64,000 bases of DNA from an uncultured Desulfobacterales bacterium (lineage in GTDB: Bacteria > Desulfobacterota > DSM-4660 > Desulfatiglandales > JALVZP01). Made by a program: the position numbers and the translations under genes. Each line of letters begins with the position of its first letter. Positions within the stretch are counted from its first letter, which is position 1. The stretch lies in assembly GCA_964513995.1 (NCBI GenBank), contig CAZEOQ010000008.1, positions 8,759 through 72,758 of the forward strand, in the 5' to 3' direction. Shown one piece after another: positions 8,074 to 39,651 of this stretch. The notes under the pieces were generated by a model. The model was not told where the DNA came from. It searched no databases and saw only the letters and a program-made list of their open reading frames with translations.

Positions 8074-11000
8074 TTATTCTCCTATTCTCCTTATTTCATC
8101 AATCATGCTCATTATCTGTTCTGTCCTGAATCCATTAAGATTTATTGCTCCTGACCTGCAAGATGCAACACAAAGACCACATCCTTTACATAGAACCGGA
8201 TTTATTGCTGCCTTTCCTTTAAATGGACCTTCTTCAATAAAGTATGGTGCACCATATGGGCATATCTTTATGCATGTTCCACATGATGAACACAGCATTG
8301 GATTCACTTCTGCTACATATCCTTCTGTAAGTATCTTGTCCTTTGTAAGAAGGACTGTTGCTCTTGATACTGCTGCCTTTGCCTGAGATATTGCTTCATC
8401 AATCGGTTTTGGATAATGACACATCCCACAAAGGTATATTCCATCTGTTGCAAATTCTGCTGGTGCAAGCTTTGGATGTGATTCTACAAAAAATCCGTCT
8501 TCATTCAGTGGGACTTTGAAGAATTTTGCAATCTGCTCACTTTCTTCATTAGGAACTATTGCTGATGCAAGAATGATAAGATCTGGCTGGATAATAATAT
8601 CTCTTTCAAGGATATGATCTTTTACCTTTACCTTGAGGACTCCATTCTCATTTGAAACCTCTGGCTTCTTTTCAAGATCATATCTTATAAAAAGAACACC
8701 CTTTTTTCTTGCCTCAAGATAAAGATTCTCTCTTTCTCCATATGTCCTTATGTCCCTGTAAAGTATGTATATGTCCATTTCAGGATTCAGCTCTTTCAGA
8801 TAAAGAGCACTCTTTATAGAATGAGTACAGCATACCTTTGAACAATAAGGTCTTTCCTTATCTCTTGAACCAACACACTGTATAAATACAACACTTTTTA
8901 GTCTTTTAAGAGAAGGATCTCCTTTTATGAACCTTTCATCAAGCTCAAGACCTGTAATAACCCTTTGATCTTTTCCATAAAGATATTCATCAGGCTTATA
9001 TTCCTTTGCTCCAACAGCAATTATTACTGCTCCATGTTCAATAATGTATTCTTTTCCATCTGATAGGATCTTTGTCTTAAAGTTTCCAACAAATCCCTCA
9101 ACTGAAATTATCTTTGCCTTAAGAAATACTTCTATGTTCTTATCATTTCTTACATCTTCTATAAGAGCTTTAAGTCTTTCCTGAACATCCTCTCCTTTCC
9201 ATGTCTTATAAATCCTCCTTGCCTGTCCTCCAAGCTCCTTTTCCTTTTCAACAAGAAATACCTTGTATCCCTGCATTGAAAGTGATCTTGCTGCTGTCAT
9301 CCCAGCTATTCCACCACCTATAACAAGGACATTCTTGTTTATACTTATCTTTTCTTCTTTAAGTGGTTCCATAAGAGAAACCTTTGCTACAGCCATCCTT
9401 ATAAGATCCTTTGCAATATCTGTTGCATCTTCTGGAAAATCCTTATGAACCCATGAATCCTGATTCCTTATATTTGCCATCTCAAAAAGATACTTATTAA
9501 GTCCTGCACTGATAAGTGTTTCCCGAAAAAGAGGCTCATGTGTCCTTGGAGAACATGCAGCAACAACAATCCTATTCAGACCTTTTTCTCTTATAACCTG
9601 AGCTATCTTTTCCTGTGTCTCCTGAGAGCATGTATATAGGTTGTCTTCTACATGTTCAACAAAAGGAAGGGTTTTTGCATATTCCTTAAGTTCAGAAATG
9701 TTTATGACTCCACCAATATTTATTCCACAATGACAGATAAATACACCAACTTTTGGTCTCTCTCCTGATACATCCCTTTCAGCTGGAAGAGTCTTTTCTT
9801 TTACAGCAGTTCCCCTTACATCACTTAAAAGGATTCCCACTTCACAAGCAGAAGCAGATGCATCTATTACAGAAGATGGAATGTCTTTTGGACCAGAAAT
9901 CGTTCCGCATACAAAAATGCCTTTTTTTGATGTAGATACAGGAGAGAATGAATCCGTATAAACAAACCTTCCTTTTGTAAGCCTTATTCCAAACCTCTTC
10001 AGTATCTCTTCCATCTCTTCCCTTATCTCAAATCCAACAGAAAGGACAACAATGTCAAAAAGCTCACTTTTTGGCATCCCTTTATCATCAAGATATCTTA
10101 TAAGAAGATCACCATTTTCTTCCTCTATCGTATGTATCCTTGCTCTTATAAATCTTACACCATCTTTTCTTGCCCTTTCATAGTATCTTTCAAATTCCTT
10201 TCCATATGTCCTCATATCCATATAGAATATTGCACAGTCAACTTCTGGATTATGCTCCTTTGCAACAACAGCCTCCTTTATTGCATACATACAGCATACA
10301 GAAGAACAGTATTGATTTGTCTTTATTTCACGAGATCCAACACACTGAATCCACGCAATCTTTTTTGGCTCTTTTCCATTAATAAGAAGTCTTCCTTGTG
10401 TTGGACCTGATGCAGAAAGTATCCTTTCAAATTCCATTGAAGTCATTATATTCTTATGATTCCTGTAGTTATAATTTGGAATAGATGATGGATCAAATAC
10501 CTTAAGACCTGAAGCAAATATTATTGCCCCTACCTCTATCTGTTCTATCCTTTCTGTATCATCAAGCTTTATGGCACCTGCCTGACATACCCTTTCACAT
10601 CCCTTGCAATCAAGTATATCATTTATCTTAAGACATGCATCTGGATCTCTTGCTGCCTTAAGTGGAACAGCCTGTGGATACTTTATGTATATTGCTTTTC
10701 TGTATGAAAGCCCTTCATTGTATTCATCAGGAACAACAACAGGACATACATTTATCCTTCTTATTGCTCCTTCTTTGCATGCCTCAATACAGCTCCAGCA
10801 ACCTGTGCATTCAAATGTATTGTATATAGGCTTTTCGCAGTTGCACTTTATTGCCTGCTCTAAGGAACATTCAATCCCTATGAATCTTAATCTTCTTAGA
10901 TCAACCTCCTCTTCAAACTTCCTCAAAGCCCTTATATCACATCCTCTCATAACAGCAGCAAGCTTTATATCTGGATCTTTTTTCAGTATCCTCTTTACTA

Positions 11001-27035: not shown

Positions 27036-27709
27036 GGAGGAGTCGTATGGAGCCTGAAACATTTGAATTTGAAGGAAGGACAAAAGAAGAGGCAATAAAA
27101 AAAGCTTGTGAAAAGTTAAATGTGCCTGAAGAGAAATTAGAAGTAGAGGTAATAGAGCGTGGATCTTCAGGTATATTTGGGATTGTAAGGGCAAAAAAGA
27201 TAAGGATAAGAGTAAGGATAAAGGAAGATGGTCTTTCTGTTGCAAAAAAGACCTTAGAAGAGCTTTTAAAGCTTTTTCCTATGGAAAACTTTACTGTAGA
27301 AGCAGAAAGTTCAAATGGAAAAATTCTTCTTCAGATAAAAGGAGAAAAGGCTGGTATTATAATTGGTAAAGGAGGAAGGACTCTTGATGCTCTGGAGTTT
27401 ATAGTGAATAAGATAGTAAATAAAAAATTAGAAAAGAAATTTCGCATCGTTGTTGATTTTGAACAATACAGAAAGAAAAAAGAAGAGTATTTAAAAAAAT
27501 TAGCTCTTAGTTTGGCAGAAAGGGCAAAAAAGACAAAAAAACCAGCCTTGACAATCCCTTTAACTGCAAAAGAAAGAAGGATTATACATCTTGCACTTAA
27601 AGAAGACAGGATGCTGGAGACAAAGACAATAGGAGAAGGAGATTTGAAAAAAGTTATGATAATTCCAAAGTCTGCTAAAAGAAAAAAAGCTGATGAAGCT
27701 AGAAAGTGA
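27032..27709 (+). CDS. jag: Jag/KhpB-type RNA-binding protein (KH + R3H domains)
   Basis: It has a Jag_N-like start (EFEGRTKEEAIKKACEKLNV), a KH block (IIGKGGRTLDALEFI) and R3H (ERRIIHLAL). It lies in a yidC-jag-mnmE context. Confidence 0.8.
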   Translation: MRRSRMEPETFEFEGRTKEEAIKKACEKLNVPEEKLEVEVIERGSSGIFGIVRAKKIRIRVRIKEDGLSVAKKTLEELLKLFPMENFTVEAESSNGKILLQIKGEKAGIIIGKGGRTLDALEFIVNKIVNKKLEKKFRIVVDFEQYRKKKEEYLKKLALSLAERAKKTKKPALTIPLTAKERRIIHLALKEDRMLETKTIGEGDLKKVMIIPKSAKRKKADEARK

Positions 27710-29078
27710 AGATACAATAGCAGCTATCTCAACTCCTATAGGACAGGCTGGAATAGGGATAATAAGGATAAGTGGGCCTCTTTCTCTTTCCATTGCAAAG
27801 AAGATATTTAAACCAAAAAGAGATATAAAAGAATTTGAATCACATCGTCTTTACCTTGGGCATATATTTGATCCAGAGACAGGGGAGACTATAGATGAAG
27901 TCCTTCTTTCATACATGAAAGCTCCAAATTCTTATACAAGAGAAGATGTCGTAGAGATAAATTCTCACAGTGGTTATCTTGTCCTTTCAAAGATTCTTGA
28001 TCTTGTTATTTCTCAAGGAGCAAGACTTGCAAAGCCAGGAGAGTTTACATTAAGAGCATTTCTGAATGGAAGGATAGATCTTACACAGGCAGAGGCAGTC
28101 GTTGATCTCATAAATGCAAAATCAGAAAGGGGGCTTTATCTTGCAACATCTCAGCTTCAAGGAAGACTCAGAGATGAGATAGAAGGTCTGAAGGAGGAAA
28201 TAAAAGACATACTTTCCTATGTAGAAGTTGCTATAGACTTTCCTGAAGAAGAAGACGCAGAGATATCAAGAGATGAGATAGTAAAAAGGATAGAGGGTGT
28301 TATTCCTCATATAGAAGACATAATAAAGCTTCACAGTCAGAAAAAGATCTGGATAGATGGAATAAGCATAGTCATTGTTGGAAGGGTAAATGTTGGGAAA
28401 TCAAGTCTCATGAACAGACTTCTTAATGAAGAAAGGGCAATTGTTACGCCAATTCCTGGAACAACAAGAGACATAATAGAAAGCAATGTTCTTATAAATG
28501 GACTTCCTATAAGACTTATAGACACTGCAGGATTAAGGCAAGTAGAAGATGAAGTAGAAAAGATTGGTATATCTCTTACTACAAAAAAACTAAAAGAGGC
28601 AGATCTTGTCCTTGTAGTAATTGACCAGAGTCAGGGTTTAAAAAGGGAAGACATAGAGATAATTGAAATGAGTAAGGAAAAAAAAGCTATAATTGTCTTA
28701 AATAAAACAGATCTTCCTTCAAAGATAGCAGAAGATGATAAAAAGCTCTTAGAATCATATAGATTTCCGATTGTATGGATCTCTGCACTGAAAGGAGAAG
28801 GAATAGAAAACCTAAAAGAGGTTATATTTAATACAGTTGTAAAAGGAGTAGATCTTACAGAATCAGGAATTGCTCCAAACTTAAGGCATAAAAGGCTTCT
28901 TGAAGAGGCAAAAGAAGGATTAAAAAATGCATTGAAGCTTTTAAAAGAAGGTGGAACAATGGATCTGATAGCATTTGAAATAAGAACTTCACTGAATGCA
29001 CTTGGAGAAATAACAGGAGAGGTTACAACAGAAGACATCCTTGAAAGGATATTCAGTCAATTCTGCTTAGGGAAATGA
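27693..29078 (+). CDS. mnmE: tRNA uridine-5-carboxymethylaminomethyl modification GTPase MnmE
   Basis: It has DTIAAISTP...GIIRISG, the G domain GRVNVGKSSL / DTAGLR / NKTD, and the C-terminal FCLGK. Confidence 0.92.
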   Translation: MKLESEDTIAAISTPIGQAGIGIIRISGPLSLSIAKKIFKPKRDIKEFESHRLYLGHIFDPETGETIDEVLLSYMKAPNSYTREDVVEINSHSGYLVLSKILDLVISQGARLAKPGEFTLRAFLNGRIDLTQAEAVVDLINAKSERGLYLATSQLQGRLRDEIEGLKEEIKDILSYVEVAIDFPEEEDAEISRDEIVKRIEGVIPHIEDIIKLHSQKKIWIDGISIVIVGRVNVGKSSLMNRLLNEERAIVTPIPGTTRDIIESNVLINGLPIRLIDTAGLRQVEDEVEKIGISLTTKKLKEADLVLVVIDQSQGLKREDIEIIEMSKEKKAIIVLNKTDLPSKIAEDDKKLLESYRFPIVWISALKGEGIENLKEVIFNTVVKGVDLTESGIAPNLRHKRLLEEAKEGLKNALKLLKEGGTMDLIAFEIRTSLNALGEITGEVTTEDILERIFSQFCLGK

Positions 29079-31183: not shown

Positions 31184-32136
31184 TAGGAGGAGATATTGTA
31201 AAGATAGAAAAGATAACGAATGAACTCGTAAAAAACATAGGTTCAGATCTTCCTCTTATAAGAGAAGCAGGTTTTTATATATTGCTTGGAGATGGAAAGC
31301 TTCTAAGACCTATACTTTTTATTTTGTGCTGTAAACTTTGTGGTTATGAAAAAGAAGACATATATTCCATATCAACTGTGTTTGAATATATTCATGTTGC
31401 ATCTCTTCTTCACGATGATGTCCTTGATAATGCAGAGACAAGAAGAAATAAGCCTTCTGTAAATAACAAATGGGGAAATCATGTTGCTATCTTAGAAGGA
31501 GACTTTCTTTATACCAGATCTATCATAACAGCACTTAAAGCAAAGAATCTGAAATTTATGGAAAAGATTGCTGAAGCTACAAGCGATATGGTAGAAGGAC
31601 AGATCATGGAAATTGCATACTCAAATAAGTTAGATCTGACAAAGGAAGAATATATGAAGATAGTTGAAAAGAAGACTGCTTCCCTTCTTTCAGCTGCTTG
31701 TGCATCTGGTGCAATTATTGCTGGTGCAGGAAAAAGAGCAGAAGAAGCTCTTTCCAGATTTGGATTTTATCTTGGTATTGCATTCCAGCTTATAGATGAT
31801 CTTTTAGATTATATTGCAAAAGAAGAAAGATTTGGAAAACCTGTTGGAAAAGACATAAGAGAAGGAAAGATTACCCTCCCTCTTATATATGCACTTGAGG
31901 AGATGAAAGAAGAAGAAAGGGAAAAGATAGAAAGAATTTTAAAAGAAAAGGCTCCATCATGTCTTTATGAAGAAATAATAGAGAAAGTAAGAAAGACAAA
32001 TGCTATAAGATATACAAAAGAAGAAGCACTTTGCTTTGTAGAAAAAGCAAAGAAGGAGCTTTCATTTTTTGAAGATTCTCCTGTAAAAGAGAGTCTTATC
32101 TGTCTGAGCAATTATATAATAAACAGAGACCGCTAA
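31180..32136 (+). CDS. Long-chain polyprenyl diphosphate synthase (IspB/HepT-like)
   Basis: It has the first aspartate-rich motif LLHDDVLDNAETRR and the second FQLIDDLLDY. Product chain length cannot be inferred. Confidence 0.85.
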   Translation: MIGGDIVKIEKITNELVKNIGSDLPLIREAGFYILLGDGKLLRPILFILCCKLCGYEKEDIYSISTVFEYIHVASLLHDDVLDNAETRRNKPSVNNKWGNHVAILEGDFLYTRSIITALKAKNLKFMEKIAEATSDMVEGQIMEIAYSNKLDLTKEEYMKIVEKKTASLLSAACASGAIIAGAGKRAEEALSRFGFYLGIAFQLIDDLLDYIAKEERFGKPVGKDIREGKITLPLIYALEEMKEEEREKIERILKEKAPSCLYEEIIEKVRKTNAIRYTKEEALCFVEKAKKELSFFEDSPVKESLICLSNYIINRDR

Positions 32137-32897
32137 ATCTTTATCCTGAGAAAATCCTTTGCAATTATAACATTTCCCTTATAATGCCTCTTGCAACTTC
32201 CTATGATATCAGTCTTTAAACACTCAGGATAAAGATGAGTAAGAACTAAGTTTTTTACATTTGCAGAACCTGCTATTCTTCCTGCAGAATCTGGACTGAG
32301 ATGTGTATCTATCTTGTATTTTCTCAGGTATTCTTCAGGAAAAGAGCATTCTAAGATAAGGAGATCTACATCTTTTGAAGCTTCAATTATCTCCTCACAA
32401 AATCCTGTATCTCCTGAATAAACAATCCTTTTACCAGATGCCTCTATTCTGTAACCTACACTTTCAGGGCTGTGTTTTACAGGAAAAGAAATAACTGTAA
32501 CATCATCAAAGTCTCTTCTTGCCTTTTTCCCCATCTCATCAATCCTCAAGATCTCAGCTGGCAGATTAAGAGAATTTCCATAAGCTCTTTGTATTCCCCT
32601 TATAAAATTCCTTATTCCTGGAGGTCCGTGAACAGTAAAAGGAGACTGAAATTCAGAGCCTATGTTTTTCATAAAAAACATAAAATGGATAAGATCAGCT
32701 GTATGATCAGGATGAAAATGTGAAATGAGGATGTGTTTTATTGATATACAAGAAAGACCAGCTTTTTTTATCTGTCTTACAGTTCCAGGACCTATATCCA
32801 AAAGTAAGTAAGTCTTTTCTGTTTTTATTAAAACAGAAGGAGAGGATCTGTCTTCTGTTGGTATAAAACTTCCTGATCCCAAAATAAGAACTTCCAA
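32133..32897 (-). CDS. MBL-fold metallo-hydrolase (RNase Z/BN-like)
   Basis: It has the HFHPDHTADL (HxHxDH) motif, with downstream His/Asp ligands (VKHSPES, SGDTG, THL). Confidence 0.8.
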   Translation of the reverse strand: MEVLILGSGSFIPTEDRSSPSVLIKTEKTYLLLDIGPGTVRQIKKAGLSCISIKHILISHFHPDHTADLIHFMFFMKNIGSEFQSPFTVHGPPGIRNFIRGIQRAYGNSLNLPAEILRIDEMGKKARRDFDDVTVISFPVKHSPESVGYRIEASGKRIVYSGDTGFCEEIIEASKDVDLLILECSFPEEYLRKYKIDTHLSPDSAGRIAGSANVKNLVLTHLYPECLKTDIIGSCKRHYKGNVIIAKDFLRIKI

Positions 32898-32945
32898 TTG
32901 AAACTCACCTCCTGTAAAATATTTTAGAAGAAAGGAGGGGAAAAT

Positions 32946-35303
32946 ATGTCCTATGTTCTTTTTATAGGAAATTCTGAAGAAAAAAGGAATATTTTTTTTG
33001 AGCTATCAAAAGAGCTTCCTATGGAATTTATATCTTCCTTAGACAAACTTCCAGAAAAAAAACCAGATCTTGTTATCTTAGAGGATCTGGAAGTCCTTAA
33101 AAAGATAAGAGAAAAATATAATGACGAACTTCTGCCATTTATTACAGTTGGAAATAATAAGGATCTTATAAAGGAGCAGATAAGGTCTTTTTTAAAGATC
33201 AAAAGATTTTATGATGAGATATTATCTGAACTTAAGCAAAAAAGACAAGAATTACAATGTCTTTTTCAGATCTCAACCCTCAGAGAAAAGACAAATATTA
33301 CCTTGGAAGAAATCACTCAAGAAATAGCAAATATAATATCTTCTTTAAAGCTTTCAGAAGGAAATGAGATATGTGCCAGGATATTTTTGGGATATCAAGA
33401 ATTCAGGTCAGATAATTTCTTTATAACCCCTTGGAAGTATGCAAGTGATATTATCATAGATGGGGAATGGGGAGGAACTATAGAGATTTATTATTCAAAG
33501 AAACCTGAAAGCTTTAAGGAAAAAGACCTTATTGATGCAATAAGTGAAAGGCTTGGAAGGATAGCAGAAAGGTTTAAGGCAGAAGAATCACTGAAATTTG
33601 AAAGCAGAAATATAAAGAACATATTAAATGCAATGAAAGATCTGATCTATAAGGTAAATGAGAATTATGAGATAGAGTATATAAATCCTGCAATGGAAAA
33701 AGAGTTTGGACCTGCAGGTGGAAAGAAGTGTTATGAATATTTTGGAAGAAGAAAGATTTGTGAATCTTGTCCTCTTCCAGAGGTCTTAAAAGGAAAGACT
33801 TTAAGGAGAGAGAGATACTTTGAAGACAGGAAAAAGATATATGATGTATTAGAGACTCCTGTCAGAAATCCTGATGGAACTGTATCAATGCTTTCTATTC
33901 TCAGAGATCTTACAGAACTGAAACGTGCACATATGGATCTTATGGAAAAGGAAGAGCTTCACAGGAAACTGACAGAATCTGTTGCAGATGGCGTTATTCT
34001 TGTGCAGGATGGAAAGATAATATTTGCAAATAAGGCATTTTCAGAAATATTTGAATTTGAAAATACTCAAGAACTTATAGGAACAGAGATAAAATCCTTA
34101 TTTGATAAAGACTTCCATGCACTATGCAAAAAGGTATTTGATCCTTATCTTCTTCCAAATGCAATAGAGCCAACAAACTGGCTTCTTGGAAAGACAAAGA
34201 GGGGGAAAAAGATCTGGGTAGCAATAAACAGAAGTATTATTACTTTAAAATCAAAACCTGCTATCCTTGCAACTTTCAGAGATGTTACAGAACAGGTAAT
34301 GTGGGAGAGAAAGATTCAAGAAGAAACAGAATATTTCAGAAGAGAAACAATAAAACTCAGATCTACTCTAAAGGATAGATACAAATTCGGAGAGCTGATA
34401 GGAAAAAGCCCTGCAATGCAACAGGTATATGAGCTTATTCTTAAGGCAGCAGATTCTGATGCAAGTGTAGTGATCCTTGGAGAATCAGGGACAGGAAAGG
34501 AACTTGTTGCAAGAGCTATACATAAACTTAGCAAAAGGGCTAATAAGCCTTTTATTGCTGTAAACTGTGGAGCAATCCCTGAACAACTTGTAGAAAGTGA
34601 ATTTTTTGGTCATAAAAAAGGATCTTTTACAGGGGCATATACTGACAAGCATGGATATCTTTATGTAGTAAATGGAGGAACACTTTTTTTGGATGAGGTT
34701 GGGGAACTTAATACAAACATTCAGGTAAAATTCTTAAGAGCACTTGAAACAGGAGAATATTCTCCTATAGGAGACACGAATACATATAAGTCAGACTTCA
34801 GGCTTATCTGTGCAACAAACAGAGATCTTGCACAGCTTGTAAGAGAAGGAAAGATGAGGGAAGATTTTTATTACAGAATAAGCGTGATCCCTATCTTCAT
34901 TCCACCACTTAGGGAAAGAAAAGAAGATATTCCTCTCCTTGTAGAACATTTCTTAAAGGTATACAGCAAAGGAAAACATCCTCCAATACTTCCTGCAAAA
35001 TACATGGATCTTCTTATGAGCTATGACTGGCCCGGAAATGTCAGAGAACTTCAGGCAGTAATACAGAGATATCTTGCTGTTGGAACATTTGATTTTATGA
35101 ATAAAAAACTGAATGAACCTTCTGTAGACATAGAAAACTTTTCTTCAAAGAGCCTAAGACAAGCAGTTGATGAATTTGAGAAACAGATTATTCTGAAGAC
35201 ATTAAATCAAAACAGATGGCATAGAGGAAAAACCGCATCTGCACTTGGAATAGATCCTAAGACATTGTATAGAAAGATGAAGAGATATGGAATTTTAGCC
35301 TGA
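32946..35303 (+). CDS. Sigma-54-dependent transcriptional activator (receiver-like N-terminus, GAF-like, two PAS, AAA+, Fis-type HTH)
   Basis: The AAA+ core has [30 protein letters not shown] (the GAFTGA-type loop), LFLDEVGEL and [10 protein letters not shown], and there is a C-terminal HTH ([22 protein letters not shown]). One PAS region carries [15 protein letters not shown]. Confidence 0.88.
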
Positions 35304-35435
35304 ATATGGTGCAAAAATGCCCTATCTTAAGAATCTTTTTTGATTTTAGAATATTACTTCAAATTCAAGCTTCATATAAGGCACTTTTGCCATAAAGATC
35401 AGAAATCCTCTTCTGGTAACATAAGGCTTCTTAAG

Positions 35436-35451
35436 TGGCATGATTGTTGCA
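35436..35451 (+). promoter_or_regulatory. Sigma-54 (-24/-12) promoter upstream of sat
   Basis: TGGCATG-ATTG-TTGCA matches the consensus TGGCACG-N4-TTGCW with one mismatch and correct GG/GC spacing. It lies about 43 nt upstream of the sat ATG and directly downstream of the sigma-54 activator gene. Confidence 0.6.
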
Positions 35452-35493
35452 TTTTAGAGTAAAAAAAAAGAGAAAAATCTAAGGGGGTAAATA

Positions 35494-36852
35494 ATGTCAG
35501 ATTTACTTATACAAAGACCTCTTCCCCATGGGGGAAGGCTTGTAGAAAGGGTTGTAAGGAACAAGGAAGTAGCAAAGAAGATGATAAAAGGCTGTCCTAC
35601 ATATGAAATAAAGCCAACACTTCACTTTGAAACAGGTGTCCCTGTAAGGAATGTATACAGAGAGATCATGTCAATCTGTTATGGATTTTTTAGTCCGGTA
35701 GAAGGTTCAATGACTCAGGCAGAAGTAGAAAGGGTTCTTAAAGAAAGAAGGCTTCTGAATGACTGGATATTTCCATTCCCACTTGTATTTGACATAAGCA
35801 AGGAGGACTATAAAAAGCTTGGTGTAACATCTGGAGATAGACTCCTTCTTACACTTAAAGGAAAGCCTTTTGCTGTCCTGGACATAGAAGAAGTATGGGA
35901 GATAGATCATCTTGAAGAATTTGCACATAAGGTATTTGGAACACCAGAAGATAATCCAGAAGTAGTAAGACAGCGTTTTGACAAAAAGCATCCAGGATGG
36001 GTAATATACCGCAGTCATCAGCCAGTTGTCCTTGCAGGAAAGTATACGATTATAAACGAACCTAAGTTCCGTCCACCATTTGACAGATTCTGGTATCCAC
36101 CAAGAGAGTGCAGGAAGAAGTTTGATGAGCTTGGATGGCGGACAGTCATTGCTCATCAGACAAGAAATGTTCCACATGTAGGACACGAGTTCCTTATGAA
36201 GAATGCAGCATATACAGGTGATGTTGAGCCTTGTCATGGAATACTTGTAAATGCAATAATTGGTGTGAAAAGAAGAGGAGATTATCCTGATGAGACGATA
36301 GTTGAGGCACAGGAGGCAGTAAGCACAGCAGGATACATAAAGCCTGAAAGAAGACTTGTAAGCATCTGTCTCTGGGACATGAGATACGGAAATCCTCTTG
36401 AATCACTTCTTCATGCAATAATCCGTCAGAATATGGGATGCACTCATCACATGTTTGGTCGTGATCACGCAGCAGTTGGTGAATACTACGACATGTGGGC
36501 AACCCAGATCCTTTGGACAAAAGGAATTCCAAGCTTTGGATTTGACAAACCACCAACAGAAGTTCCATATGGACTCCAGATAAGACCACAGAATATCAGG
36601 GAATTTGCATACTGTCCAGTCTGCAAAGAGATGGCATACAGTGAGACATGTGGACATAAAAGAGAAGGAATAAGTGGAAGTCTTCTGAGGGGACTTATAG
36701 CAGAAGGTGTTCAGCCTCCTGCAATAATTATGAGACCAGAGGTATATAAGGTAGTAGTAAAATGGTGGAAGAAGTTTGGATATCCTTTCTGCAATGAGAA
36801 GTATGTGATGGAAAAGGAGAAGAATCTTGAAGTTGATCTTGAAGACCTATAA
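35494..36852 (+). CDS. sat: Sulfate adenylyltransferase (ATP sulfurylase), dissimilatory type
   Basis: It has LPHGGRL near the N-terminus, HQTRNVPHVGHEFL (QTRN/HxxH nucleotidyl-transferase motifs) and a strong RBS (AAGGGGG). It lies upstream of aprBA. Confidence 0.92.
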   Translation: MSDLLIQRPLPHGGRLVERVVRNKEVAKKMIKGCPTYEIKPTLHFETGVPVRNVYREIMSICYGFFSPVEGSMTQAEVERVLKERRLLNDWIFPFPLVFDISKEDYKKLGVTSGDRLLLTLKGKPFAVLDIEEVWEIDHLEEFAHKVFGTPEDNPEVVRQRFDKKHPGWVIYRSHQPVVLAGKYTIINEPKFRPPFDRFWYPPRECRKKFDELGWRTVIAHQTRNVPHVGHEFLMKNAAYTGDVEPCHGILVNAIIGVKRRGDYPDETIVEAQEAVSTAGYIKPERRLVSICLWDMRYGNPLESLLHAIIRQNMGCTHHMFGRDHAAVGEYYDMWATQILWTKGIPSFGFDKPPTEVPYGLQIRPQNIREFAYCPVCKEMAYSETCGHKREGISGSLLRGLIAEGVQPPAIIMRPEVYKVVVKWWKKFGYPFCNEKYVMEKEKNLEVDLEDL

Positions 36853-36864
36853 AGGAGGAAAAAA

Positions 36865-37221
36865 ATGGGTCATTACATTTTAGTATTTTTGGATGAAAGA
36901 AGGATGGAGAAGATAAAAGGGACTGAGGTTGAAAATAAGATAAAGACGATGTTTGGAGGAGAGCTGAAGTGCATAGAAGTAGATGTTCCTGATGAGCTGA
37001 GTCAAAAGATACTCAAGACATTTGATACAGCTCGTATTGATGCACGTGGTGCAATAACAGACCTTCCCGTAGCATTTATGAGGGAGCTTTTCAACAGTAT
37101 AGCAGAAAAGAAGTCTGTAGGTCCTGAAGTAATAGAAGCTGTTCTTTCCAAAGCTGACGAGATAAAAGAGATGGCAGCAAAAGAATCAGAATATCTTCCT
37201 CCTCCAGACATAGAGGTCTAA
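36865..37221 (+). CDS. Hypothetical acidic 118-aa protein embedded between sat and aprB
   Basis: It has a strong RBS (AAGGAGG 8 nt upstream) and 12/24-nt gaps to its neighbours. I recognised no motif. Confidence 0.6.
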   Translation: MGHYILVFLDERRMEKIKGTEVENKIKTMFGGELKCIEVDVPDELSQKILKTFDTARIDARGAITDLPVAFMRELFNSIAEKKSVGPEVIEAVLSKADEIKEMAAKESEYLPPPDIEV

Positions 37222-37245: not shown

Positions 37246-37689
37246 ATGCCAAGTTATGTGATTACTGAAAAATGTGATGGTTGCAAAGGTCAGGACAAGA
37301 CTGCATGCATGTACATCTGTCCAAACGATCTTATGGTTCTTGATAAAGAAAGGATGAAGGCATACAATCGTGATCCATCAATGTGCTGGGAATGCCAGTG
37401 CTGTGTAAAGATCTGTCCACAGCAGGCAATGGATGTTCGTGGTTATGCTGACTTTATGCCACTTGGAGCAAGCTGCACACCACTTCGTGGATCAAAGGAC
37501 ATTATGTGGACAGTAAAGTTCAGAGATGGAACAATAAAAAGGTTCAAGTTCCCTATAAGGACAACTGAGGAAGGAACAGCAGATCCAACAGGAGGATTCA
37601 AGACACATGATGATCTAAAAAGTGAAGCACTTGCAGTAGAACCAGATGCACTTGGAATTCCTGAAGTTCCAAAATTTAAATCTTCATAA
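37246..37689 (+). CDS. aprB: Adenylylsulfate (APS) reductase beta subunit
   Basis: It has MPSYVITEKCDGCKG...CMYICPNDLM and CWECQCCVKICPQQA, the two 4Fe-4S motifs characteristic of AprB, plus the C-terminal tail. Confidence 0.92.
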   Translation: MPSYVITEKCDGCKGQDKTACMYICPNDLMVLDKERMKAYNRDPSMCWECQCCVKICPQQAMDVRGYADFMPLGASCTPLRGSKDIMWTVKFRDGTIKRFKFPIRTTEEGTADPTGGFKTHDDLKSEALAVEPDALGIPEVPKFKSS

Positions 37690-37701: not shown

Positions 37702-39588
37702 ATGGCAAACTTTGAAACAGTAGAAGTCAAGACAGACCTTCTTATCATTGGTGGTGGAATGGCAGCATGTGGTGCTGCTACAGAGGCATCATATTGGGCA
37801 AAAAAGCATGGTCTTAAGGTAGTAATGGTAGATAAGGCAGTTCCAGAAAGAAGTGGTGCAGTAGCACAGGGACTTTCTGCTATAAATCTTTATCTTGGAA
37901 TGAAACATGGAGAAAATACACCTGAAGACTATGTAAGATATGTCCGCAATGACCTTATGGGAATTTCAAGAGAGGATCTCGTATACAACATTGCAAGACA
38001 TGTAGACTCAACAGTCCATCTCTTTGAGAAATGGGGACTCAGGATCTGGACAGATGAAAGTGGAAAGTATGTGCGTGAAGGAAGATGGCAGATAATGATA
38101 AACGGAGAGTCATACAAGTGGATAGTTGCAGAGGCAGCAAGAAATGCAATGAAGGATGCAGGAGGAGAGATATTTGAAAGAGTATTCATTGCAGAGCCAC
38201 TTATAGAAGGAAACAGATGTGTTGGTGCAGTAGGATTCAGCGTAAGAGAAAATAAGTTCTATGTATTTAAGGCAAGGGCAACAATAATTGCTGCAGGTGG
38301 TGCAGTCCATGTATTCCGTCCAAGATCAACAGGTGAAGGATTTGGTCGTTCCTGGTATCCACCATTCAATACAGGATCCAGTGCATACTTTACAATAAAG
38401 TCTGGATGTGAAATGACATGTCAGGAAGTAAGATTTGTTCCTGTAAGATTCAAGGATGCATATGGACCAGTTGGTGCATGGTTCCTGCTTTTTAAGTCAA
38501 GGGCAATAAGTGCAGCTGGTGGAGATTACATGGAGACAAGAAAGGATGTCCTTGAAAAATGGAAGCCATATGGACTTGCAAAACCAATCCCAGCAAACTT
38601 AAGAAACTATCTTGGACAGCTTGACCTTGATGCAGGTCTTGGACCACTTTACATGATGACACATGAGGCAATTGCGAAGCTTGCAGAGCAGTATAAGGAT
38701 GATCCAAAGGCATACAAGAGAAAGCTTAAGGAACTTGAAGCAGAAGCATGGGAAGACTTCCTTGACATGACAATCTCACAGGCACTCCTTTGGGCATCCC
38801 AGAACATAAAACCAGAAGAAAAGCCATCAGAGATTGCAGCAGCTGAACCATACTTCATAGGATCACACTCTGGTGCATCAGGTGCATGGGTAAGTGGACC
38901 AGAAGATCTTCCAACACCATACAAGTGGGGACCAGTAAACATGACAACAGTAGAAGGACTTTTTGCAGCAGGAGATGCATCTGGTGCATCACCACATAAG
39001 TTCTCATCAGGATCTCATACAGAAGGAAGGATTGCAGGAAAGTCTGCTATAAGATACCTCGTGGAGCAGAATCCACCAGAACCACAGATTGATCCAAAGA
39101 AGATAGAAGAACTCAAGAAGAAGGTCCTCTCACCACTTGATCGCTTTGAGAAGTATAAGAACTACACAACAGATCCAACAGTAAATCCAAACTACCTGCT
39201 CTGGCGTCAGTTCCTTGATAGACTCCAGAAGATCATGGATGAGTATGCAGGTGGAGTAAATGTTGGATTTAAGACAAACAAGCATCTTCTTGAAAGAGGA
39301 CTTGAGCTTCTTCAGTTCCTGAAAGAAGACAGTGAAAAGCTTGCAGCTCGTGATCTCCATGAGCTTATGAGGTGCTGGGAGTGCATCCACAGGATGTGGC
39401 AGGCAGAAGCTCATGTAAGAAGTGTCCTGTTTAGAGAGGAAACAAGATGGCCAGGATACTACTTCAGAGCAGACTTCCCAGAAATGGATGAAAAGAACTG
39501 GCACTGCTTCGTAAACTGCAGATGGAATCCAGAGACAGGTGAATGGGAGCTTATGAAGAAGGATGTATGGCATATGCCAGGAGTATAA
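37702..39588 (+). CDS. aprA: Adenylylsulfate (APS) reductase alpha subunit
   Basis: It has an FAD Rossmann fold (LLIIGGGMAACGAA), a fumarate-reductase-family fold and the conserved FREETRWPGYYFRADFPE block. Confidence 0.95.
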   Translation: MANFETVEVKTDLLIIGGGMAACGAATEASYWAKKHGLKVVMVDKAVPERSGAVAQGLSAINLYLGMKHGENTPEDYVRYVRNDLMGISREDLVYNIARHVDSTVHLFEKWGLRIWTDESGKYVREGRWQIMINGESYKWIVAEAARNAMKDAGGEIFERVFIAEPLIEGNRCVGAVGFSVRENKFYVFKARATIIAAGGAVHVFRPRSTGEGFGRSWYPPFNTGSSAYFTIKSGCEMTCQEVRFVPVRFKDAYGPVGAWFLLFKSRAISAAGGDYMETRKDVLEKWKPYGLAKPIPANLRNYLGQLDLDAGLGPLYMMTHEAIAKLAEQYKDDPKAYKRKLKELEAEAWEDFLDMTISQALLWASQNIKPEEKPSEIAAAEPYFIGSHSGASGAWVSGPEDLPTPYKWGPVNMTTVEGLFAAGDASGASPHKFSSGSHTEGRIAGKSAIRYLVEQNPPEPQIDPKKIEELKKKVLSPLDRFEKYKNYTTDPTVNPNYLLWRQFLDRLQKIMDEYAGGVNVGFKTNKHLLERGLELLQFLKEDSEKLAARDLHELMRCWECIHRMWQAEAHVRSVLFREETRWPGYYFRADFPEMDEKNWHCFVNCRWNPETGEWELMKKDVWHMPGV

Positions 39589-39607
39589 GAACAGGGCTTA
39601 AATAAAA

Positions 39608-39651
39608 TAACGCCCTGGGCTTAAAAAGCCCAGGGCGTTATACCGTTTTTT
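39608..39651 (+). terminator. Rho-independent terminator/attenuator between aprA and qmoA
   Basis: A 15-bp perfect GC-rich stem (TAACGCCCTGGGCTT / AAGCCCAGGGCGTTA) closes a 3-nt loop and is followed by TACCGTTTTTT. It starts 20 nt after the aprA stop. Confidence 0.8.

Follow-up and report, generated by a model that had tools for sequence, protein, structure and literature searches.

Dissimilatory sulfate reduction accounts for a large share of anaerobic carbon mineralisation, and its core pathway is usually regarded as constitutive; to our knowledge, very little has been established about how its core genes are regulated at the level of transcription. This analysis concerns a stretch of 64,000 nucleotides from an uncultured Desulfobacterales bacterium (contig CAZEOQ010000008.1), referred to throughout as the window, and in particular the 190-bp spacer between a gene for a sigma-54 enhancer-binding protein (EBP) and sat, the gene for sulfate adenylyltransferase, which is followed by the APS reductase genes aprBA. 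Judged from its sequence, this spacer is very probably a functional region through which the EBP and sigma-54 control sat-aprBA.

The described systems that come closest are Rex, OrpR and the NtrC/NifA-type EBPs. As of 2024, Rex was the only regulator of sat to be cited (PMC11451228). Its regulon in Desulfovibrio is reported to cover sat, qmoABCD, adk and ppaC (Christensen et al. 2015, PMC4288696, as cited in PMC11451228), and the Rex regulon of strain G20 has also been described (PMC4045070). The two controls have a target in common, sat being the first step of dissimilatory sulfate reduction, and both are presumably linked to redox state or energy. However, Rex represses, sensing NADH and working at a sigma-70 promoter by way of the operator TTGTGAA-N4-TTCACAA, whereas positive control through sigma-54 is predicted here.

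Desulfobacterota are rich in EBPs, and sigma-54 is used for many non-nitrogen functions (PMC4641369; PMC12316311). The words sat, apr, qmo and APS are absent from the paper on the sigma-54 regulome of Desulfovibrio vulgaris Hildenborough (PMC4641369), as is the word 'sulfate' from a cross-phylum survey of sigma-54 regulons from 2025 (PMC12316311). Neither study, then, names sat, apr or qmo as sigma-54 targets, unlike the present analysis, and the literature searched contained no account of these genes being controlled by sigma-54 or an EBP. OrpR of D. vulgaris Hildenborough resembles the EBP described here in being a sigma-54 activator in a sulfate reducer, with palindromic binding sites (predicted in the present case) beside its targets. 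Its PAS domain binds a [4Fe-4S] cluster via three cysteines and suffices for signal gating (PMC8359166). However, OrpR controls the orp operons rather than sulfate-reduction genes.

The NtrC/NifA-type EBPs, for which solved comparators include Aquifex NtrC1, ZraR, DmpR, FleQ and PspF, share with this locus the usual order of sensor, AAA+ sigma-54 interaction domain and Fis-type helix-turn-helix (HTH). Also shared are both Walker motifs (A and B), a loop of the GAFTGA type, a pair of palindromes upstream and a TGGCAY-N5-TTGCW promoter with GG-N10-GC spacing. The differences lie in the sensor, where a degenerate receiver is followed by a domain that Pfam does not match and then by two PAS domains, and where four cysteines are invariant; in the target, which is sat-aprBA rather than nitrogen, flagellar, stress or aromatic-catabolism genes; and in the loop, which reads GSFTGA. 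Furthermore, the cut-off of no named NCBIfam equivalog was reached here. The features on which the argument depends are listed below, where UAS stands for upstream activating sequence and TSS for transcription start site.

32946-35303, plus strand: sigma-54 EBP gene, 785 aa, identified from Pfam domains, an AlphaFold model and a 53-sequence alignment
35309-35322, no strand: candidate UAS1, 14-bp palindrome GTGCA-AAAA-TGCCC, centred 12.5 nt past the EBP stop codon, at about -146.5 from the predicted TSS
35379-35392, no strand: candidate UAS2, 14-bp palindrome AGGCA-CTTT-TGCCA, centred 70 bp from UAS1 and 51.5 bp before the -24 GG, at about -76.5 from the predicted TSS
35436-35451, plus strand: predicted sigma-54 (-24/-12) promoter TGGCATGATTGTTGCA, TGGCATG-ATTG-TTGCA, with GG at 35437-35438 and GC at 35449-35450

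The original prediction had placed a near-consensus -24/-12 element, one base off, at 35436-35451, and this was confirmed. The element matched 11 of the 12 specified bases of TGGCAC-N5-TTGCW, had the spacing GG-N10-GC, lay in the same orientation as sat and ended 42 nt from the sat ATG (35494). On both strands of the 64 kb it was the sole match to TGGCACG-N4-TTGCW with one mismatch or fewer, against a chance expectation of 0.16; since 15 of 100 shuffles also gave at least one such match, the motif by itself was only suggestive. When the window was scanned with a matrix derived solely from sigma-54-like sites in nine loci of relatives, the same site ranked first (22.4 bits, against 17.6 for the runner-up), with an exact p of 1.7e-8 per position and 3e-6 such sites expected in the 190-nt spacer. 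The runner-up, TGGCGTAACAATTGCC (28436-28451, minus strand), sits antisense within an mnmE/trmE-like open reading frame (27693-29078) and is probably due to chance. The TSS is predicted at about 35462, which would give sat a leader of 32 nt. Rfam produced no match for this leader, and only a single tRNA across the window. Sigma-70-like promoters were sought between 35200 and 35600 and none was found, against 1.2 expected; similarly, a terminator scan of the plus strand found none in the spacer between the EBP gene and sat.

Two sites had also been claimed upstream of the promoter, and both were present (ATGGTGCAAAAATGCCCTA at 35306-35324 and TAAGGCACTTTTGCCAT at 35377-35393), corresponding to UAS1 and UAS2. 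Their supposed opposite orientation did not stand, because both are palindromes in one register, of the form nGGCA-N4-TGCCn, for which opposite orientation is meaningless. As a loose pattern, the palindrome was not enriched across the window (5 matches with two mismatches or fewer, against 8.3 expected). A matrix trained only on ten sites from relatives was used to scan the window on both strands (about 128,000 positions). This showed that UAS1 and UAS2, each on both strands, were the top four positions, scoring 15.8-17.5 bits against 11.4 for the next; the exact p per position was 6-9e-7 for each palindrome. A weak palindrome at the EBP start codon (32938-32951), considered as a site of autoregulation, scored 8.5 bits only and was treated as chance.

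Conservation in relatives was assessed from 80 sat loci fetched from representative genomes. Only L003 and L004, where Sat was most similar (91-92%), combined a sat-adjacent upstream EBP with a sigma-54-like site; about 75 other sat loci lacked this EBP. A search with the EBP protein, together with context look-ups, added L083, L084 and L085/L086, giving a close-clade set of six loci that includes the window. The promoter and both upstream sites were retained with fixed spacing across these six genomes. Invariant columns of the spacer alignment were concentrated in UAS1, UAS2, the -24 and -12 elements and the ribosome-binding site (RBS); TGG-AT...TTGCA was invariant, as were the UAS columns G-C-A...T-G-C-C. 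Pairwise identity between genomes was 93-96% for the half-sites and the TGGYAY/TTGCA bases, as opposed to 39% for the remaining 150 spacer columns. From the EBP stop codon to the centre of UAS1 the distance was 12.5 nt in all six loci, and the centres of UAS1 and UAS2 were 67-70 bp apart. UAS2 was centred 51.5-52.5 bp before the -24 GG in five loci and 64.5 bp before it in L084, owing to a 12-nt insertion there, or approximately one helical turn. No further copies of the UAS motif occurred in the fetched neighbourhoods, and the EBP therefore looks like a dedicated local regulator. The alignment also contained an invariant TTA (35354-35356), near the midpoint between UAS1 and UAS2, which may be a site for bending or for an architectural protein, or may reflect chance in an AT-rich spacer.

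The wider EBP family comprised about 11 close orthologues, at 64-73% identity, and about 45 distant members, at 50-60% identity and about 855 aa in length, most of them with a receiver detected by Pfam. All members derived from metagenome-assembled genomes (MAGs) or metagenomes, with source annotation as 'hypothetical protein' or a generic description; a metagenome collection scanned with the EBP sensor region yielded no relatives. Full-length members were found directly upstream of sat-aprBA in 12 of 12 cases sampled (the window, L003, L004, P0006, P0008, P0011, P0026, P0040, P0051, P0042, P0016 and P0020), down to 52% identity. This linkage persisted in members at 52-56% identity where Sat has 404-416 aa, compared with 452 aa in the window, and where the DUF6955 gene that follows sat in the window is absent. 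P0061, a shorter outgroup EBP, was not linked to sat. Among neighbouring genes, a divergent metallo-beta-lactamase (MBL)-fold gene (Lactamase_B_2, with a weak Apyc1-like match) lies upstream of the EBP gene at 32133-32897 on the minus strand, and was its immediate upstream neighbour in 10 of 12 members, including the distant branch (L083-L086, L091-L095, L097-L098). Genes for a MiaB-like radical-SAM protein and a polyprenyl synthase were also often syntenic with the EBP gene. The association with the MBL-fold gene may be a functional link or mere conserved synteny.

Six distinct loci of the receiver-containing branch were scanned (L087, L089, L091, L093, L095 and L097). In all of these except L087, a stand-alone receiver gene (124-181 aa) was located between the EBP gene and sat, on the sat side of the sigma-54 promoter:

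L089, 8818-9192: stand-alone receiver gene
L091, 8820-9194: stand-alone receiver gene
L093, 8812-9357: stand-alone receiver gene
L095, 8822-9232: stand-alone receiver gene
L097, 8746-9225: stand-alone receiver gene

This arrangement suggests a phosphorelay or feedback component that has been lost from the window clade. In L089, L091, L093 and L095, two palindromes of the form TCGGGY-N6-RCCCGA occurred straight after the EBP stop codon, 69-72 bp apart. The strict pattern gave a single site each in L087 and L097, and L087 had an extra site of the close-clade type (TGGGCATTTTTGCCTT) directly after the EBP stop codon. A GGGC-N6-GCCC core is common to the palindromes of the receiver branch and the close clade. 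Five of the six loci also carried a TGGCAY-N5-TTGC element 86-103 bp past UAS2, ahead of the receiver gene and sat. The exception was L087 (8604-9575), where the spacer between EBP and sat extends to 970 bp; both UAS-type palindromes stand right behind the EBP stop codon. Its best sigma-54-like site, TGGCATATTTATTGCT at 9249, follows the palindromes at a distance of about 560 bp and precedes sat by 310 nt. L087 has no stand-alone receiver gene, apparently through loss or decay. The UAS variant was tracked by the recognition helix of the EBP, which is PKTLYRKMK(R/K)YG in close-clade members and PKTLY(T/I/V)KMKKxG in those of the other branch.

With respect to Rex, the surroundings of sat in the window held no operator match with three mismatches or fewer, and within the 400 nt upstream the closest match had five. 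Nor was an operator found in the 11 EBP-linked loci scanned, where the best matches had 3-6 mismatches. In eight other loci (L008, L009, L011, L053, L055, L056, L057 and L063), a Rex-like operator with two mismatches or fewer to TTGTGAA-N4-TTCACAA occurred 82-118 nt upstream of sat. Seven of these were labelled Desulfohalobiaceae or Desulfovibrionaceae and L053 was labelled Thermodesulfobacteriota, in agreement with the published reports that Rex controls sat and qmo in Desulfovibrio. No locus in the sample had both a Rex operator and a sat-linked EBP. The proposal that sat, the small gene behind it (called orf118 there) and aprBA are under RpoN and EBP control rather than Rex control is thus strongly supported by the conserved sites, by the linkage in 12 of 12 members, and by the lack of a Rex operator and of a sigma-70-like promoter in the regions scanned.

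Three further observations arose from the fetched loci. L061 (Desulfonatronovibrio) was rejected as an instance of the family: the EBP gene 1.7 kb upstream of its sat encodes an ordinary NtrC-type regulator of 483 aa, a gene on the opposite strand separates the two, and there is no sigma-54 site. L071 (a Desulfonauticus sp. MAG) has a sigma-like site, TGGCATACATATTGCC (9933-9948), 68 nt upstream of sat, with no EBP within 4 kb and no GGGC-N6-GCCC palindromes nearby; this may represent a sigma-54 promoter in its own right or, alternatively, an operator of the form GGCA-N7-TGCC. The RpoN box (ARRTVAKYR) was present, within 1.5 Mb of fetched loci, only in L024 (at about 7391) and L025 (at about 7392), where rpoN lies about 2.6 kb upstream of sat; both are related Deltaproteobacteria MAGs without a sat-linked EBP.

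The protein encoded at 32946-35303 had been described as a sigma-54 activator containing GAF and PAS domains. The activator identity was borne out and two PAS domains were found, but no GAF domain could be detected even at E <= 10. Pfam recovered Sigma54_activat (PF00158; E = 2.3e-67, profile positions 1-167 of 168), AAA_lid_14, both PAS domains and HTH_8 (E = 9e-14). The arrangement of the protein is given below, with the boundaries in the AlphaFold model, which had a mean predicted local distance difference test score (pLDDT) of 76.

Residues 1-70: receiver remnant (AlphaFold)
Residues 72-114: long helix (AlphaFold)
Residues 120-190: small alpha+beta domain (AlphaFold)
Residues 193-229: long helix (AlphaFold)
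Residues 227-327: first PAS domain (233-321 in AlphaFold)
Residues 348-449: second PAS domain (349-446 in AlphaFold)
Residues 484-650: AAA+ sigma-54 interaction domain (489-712 in AlphaFold)
Residues 741-781: Fis-type HTH (737-781 in AlphaFold)

The AAA+ core is intact, and the EBP has the look of a functional protein. Walker A reads GESGTGKE and Walker B reads DE (D583 and E584, both invariant); in the sigma-54-contact loop G559, F561, T562, G563 and A564 were invariant in 53 sequences. Foldseek matched the model to DmpR, NtrX, ZraR, NtrC1, FlrC, FleQ and PspF, with E about 1e-24 for NtrC1, ZraR, FleQ and PspF, and the AAA+ core was 40-49% identical to solved activators. The full-length fold search was dominated by this core and was therefore uninformative on the alpha+beta domain (approximately residues 120-190), for which Pfam had no match; a sequence search of residues 91-330 against solved structures found nothing. 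None of the NCBIfam equivalogs reached its cut-off, and the named ones considered as an identity for this EBP (PrdR, AtoC, NifA, NorR, NtrC and others) all fell far under theirs.

For its receiver, the window EBP gave no Response_reg match in Pfam. The alignment showed that, in the window clade, the DD pocket is gone, E-D stands at the position of the acceptor aspartate, and about 40 residues are missing, the alpha4-beta5-alpha5 region among them. Being truncated and lacking the acidic pocket, this receiver has no conventional phospho-acceptor; the distant members P0042, P0016 and P0020 retain a Pfam-detected receiver. Residues 95-450 were strongly conserved across the 53 sequences, with many invariant aromatic and charged residues and four invariant cysteines, which argues for purifying selection on a sensing function. 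These cysteines are C105, which lies outside the PAS domains, and C262, C272 and C275, which form a C-x9-C-x2-C motif in the first PAS domain; C143 was conserved in more than 90% of members. OrpR likewise has a PAS cysteine triad (C52, C61 and C65), but its spacing is C-x8-C-x3-C, and the fourth invariant cysteine outside PAS is a feature of the present family. Given the four cysteines and the OrpR precedent, it is reasonable to suggest a sensor based on a metal, an Fe-S cluster or thiol redox chemistry; that the sensor has a cysteine-ligated metal or redox centre is offered tentatively, as a possibility with the odds somewhat against it.

Downstream of the spacer, the genes of the putative transcription unit are closely packed, with intergenic gaps of 12-24 nt from sat through aprA:

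35494-36852, plus strand: sat, sulfate adenylyltransferase, 452 aa (Pfam ATP-sulfurylase and PUA_2; NCBIfam above cut-off), with RBS AAGGGGG upstream
36865-37221, plus strand: DUF6955 gene (the orf118 mentioned above), 118 aa (Pfam PF22271), 12 nt after sat
37246-37689, plus strand: aprB, APS reductase (Pfam APS-reductase_C plus Fer4 domains)
37702-39588, plus strand: aprA, APS reductase (Pfam FAD_binding_2 plus Succ_DH_flav_C)
39607-39651, plus strand: terminator-like hairpin directly after aprA, 16-bp stem with 9 G-C pairs, then a T-run

Each of the six close-clade loci had the DUF6955 gene between sat and aprB, and the receiver-branch loci lacked it; the encoded protein had no match in NCBIfam. 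The sat-aprBA transcript probably ends, or is attenuated, at the hairpin. Since this hairpin is strong, the qmoABC genes downstream of aprA may not belong fully to the unit. The qmoA ATG (39666) follows only about 15 nt past the hairpin, too close for a separate promoter to fit in, so that qmoABC may need partial read-through or attenuation. On this sequence layout, the sigma-54 unit most likely consists of sat-DUF6955-aprBA, with qmoABC reached by read-through.

The features described above can be combined in a proposed mechanism. Dimers of the EBP would bind, via the Fis-type HTH, to the two nGGCA-N4-TGCCn enhancers centred at about -146 and -76. The EBP would then form an AAA+ ring and contact sigma-54 RNA polymerase in the closed complex at TGGCAT-N5-TTGCA (35436-35451); ATP hydrolysis would open the promoter, and the transcript would run from about 35462 through sat, DUF6955, aprB and aprA to the hairpin at 39607-39651, some read-through into qmoABC being likely. 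Activity would be gated by the N-terminal sensor, that is, the non-phosphorylatable receiver remnant, the domain without a Pfam match and the two PAS domains. By analogy with OrpR, the four cysteines, with C-x9-C-x2-C in the first PAS domain, suggest that the signal may be perceived through a metal, an Fe-S cluster or thiol redox chemistry.

Three other explanations were weighed against this mechanism. The -24/-12 match could be fortuitous, with sat expressed from a sigma-70 promoter or by read-through from the EBP gene, the palindromes acting as conventional operators and the EBP regulating something else. A single match with one mismatch or fewer does have a 15% chance of arising somewhere in 64 kb, no terminator separates the EBP gene from sat, and the presence of rpoN is an assumption of the model. 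However, chance does not lead one to expect -24/-12 bases that stay unchanged across six diverged spacers, the presence of a sigma-54 element in the six receiver-branch loci also, or the p of 1.7e-8 obtained with the relatives-only matrix. Furthermore, sigma-70-like promoters fell short of expectation (0 against 1.2), the EBP adjoined sat in 12 of 12 cases across about 50% protein divergence, the palindrome variant followed EBP branch and recognition helix, and the neighbourhoods held no alternative copy of the motif; this explanation is considered quite unlikely. It is more improbable still, indeed barely credible, that the palindromes are RNA hairpins, such as the terminator of the activator gene, rather than enhancer sites. 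UAS1 begins 6 nt past the EBP stop codon, where a terminator would be expected, and short stem-loops are possible at both sites, but these hairpins are weak (-4.7 to -8.9 kcal/mol; z = -0.7 to -1.7), such that 12-46 of 200 shuffles fold as well, they have no T-tract, and the plus-strand terminator scan was empty. The sites are conserved as sequence, compensatory changes are absent, and in some copies there are positions that do not pair (e.g., GTGCA/TGCCC). UAS2 is behind no gene, and hairpins would leave unexplained the fixed spacing of 67-72 bp to the second copy and that to the -24 element.

Alternatively, the promoter and sites could be real and the EBP a decayed remnant, constitutive or inactive owing to its truncated receiver, and no longer responsive to a signal. 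This would agree with the loss of the acidic pocket and about 40 residues, with the missing Response_reg match, and with the absence from the window clade of the stand-alone receiver gene seen in the other branch. Against this, the sensor module (residues 95-450) is strongly conserved in 53 sequences, including the four invariant cysteines, and PAS alone gates the signal in many EBPs, for instance OrpR (PMC8359166); decay is accordingly thought very unlikely. Several points nonetheless weigh against sigma-54 control through the EBP as proposed here. UAS2, at about -76, is nearer the promoter than many textbook enhancers; the loop reads GSFTGA rather than the canonical GAFTGA; an RpoN box was not found within the 64-kb window, and the presence of rpoN is supported indirectly at best, by an EBP that has stayed intact through purifying selection; the missing terminator between the EBP gene and sat means that read-through could give some sigma-54-independent sat expression; and the idea of a metal or Fe-S centre draws on cysteine conservation and analogy. 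At the loop position concerned, residue 560, more than 90% of members have Ala, while the window EBP, L003 and P0026 have Ser; by sequence comparison, GSFTGA is a conservative variant.

Action of an EBP on sigma-54 polymerase is a textbook mechanism, and no new principle is involved; it is the regulator family, the operator and the target that are new. Control of sat by the EBP would constitute a second solution to the regulation of this gene, mechanistically opposite to Rex in being positive and dependent on sigma-54, and present in at least two deep branches of uncultured Desulfobacterota. The operator motif, the promoter and the candidate sensor are all directly testable, and metatranscriptomes of hydrothermal and seep sediments gain a marker for the induction of sulfate reduction. 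More speculatively, the EBP family could serve several lineages of uncultured Desulfobacterota as a master switch reserved for dissimilatory sulfate activation and APS reduction. Its input would be the redox state of the cell or some sulfur intermediate, perceived at a metal or Fe-S centre with four cysteines that reaches across the first PAS domain and the domain without a Pfam match; all this is put forward as a conjecture that may well prove wrong. If it is true, the receiver-containing branch would additionally be wired to a phosphorelay through its co-transcribed stand-alone receiver, and the core pathway would be turned on or off as these organisms move, for example, between respiring sulfate and living by syntrophy, fermentation or disproportionation.

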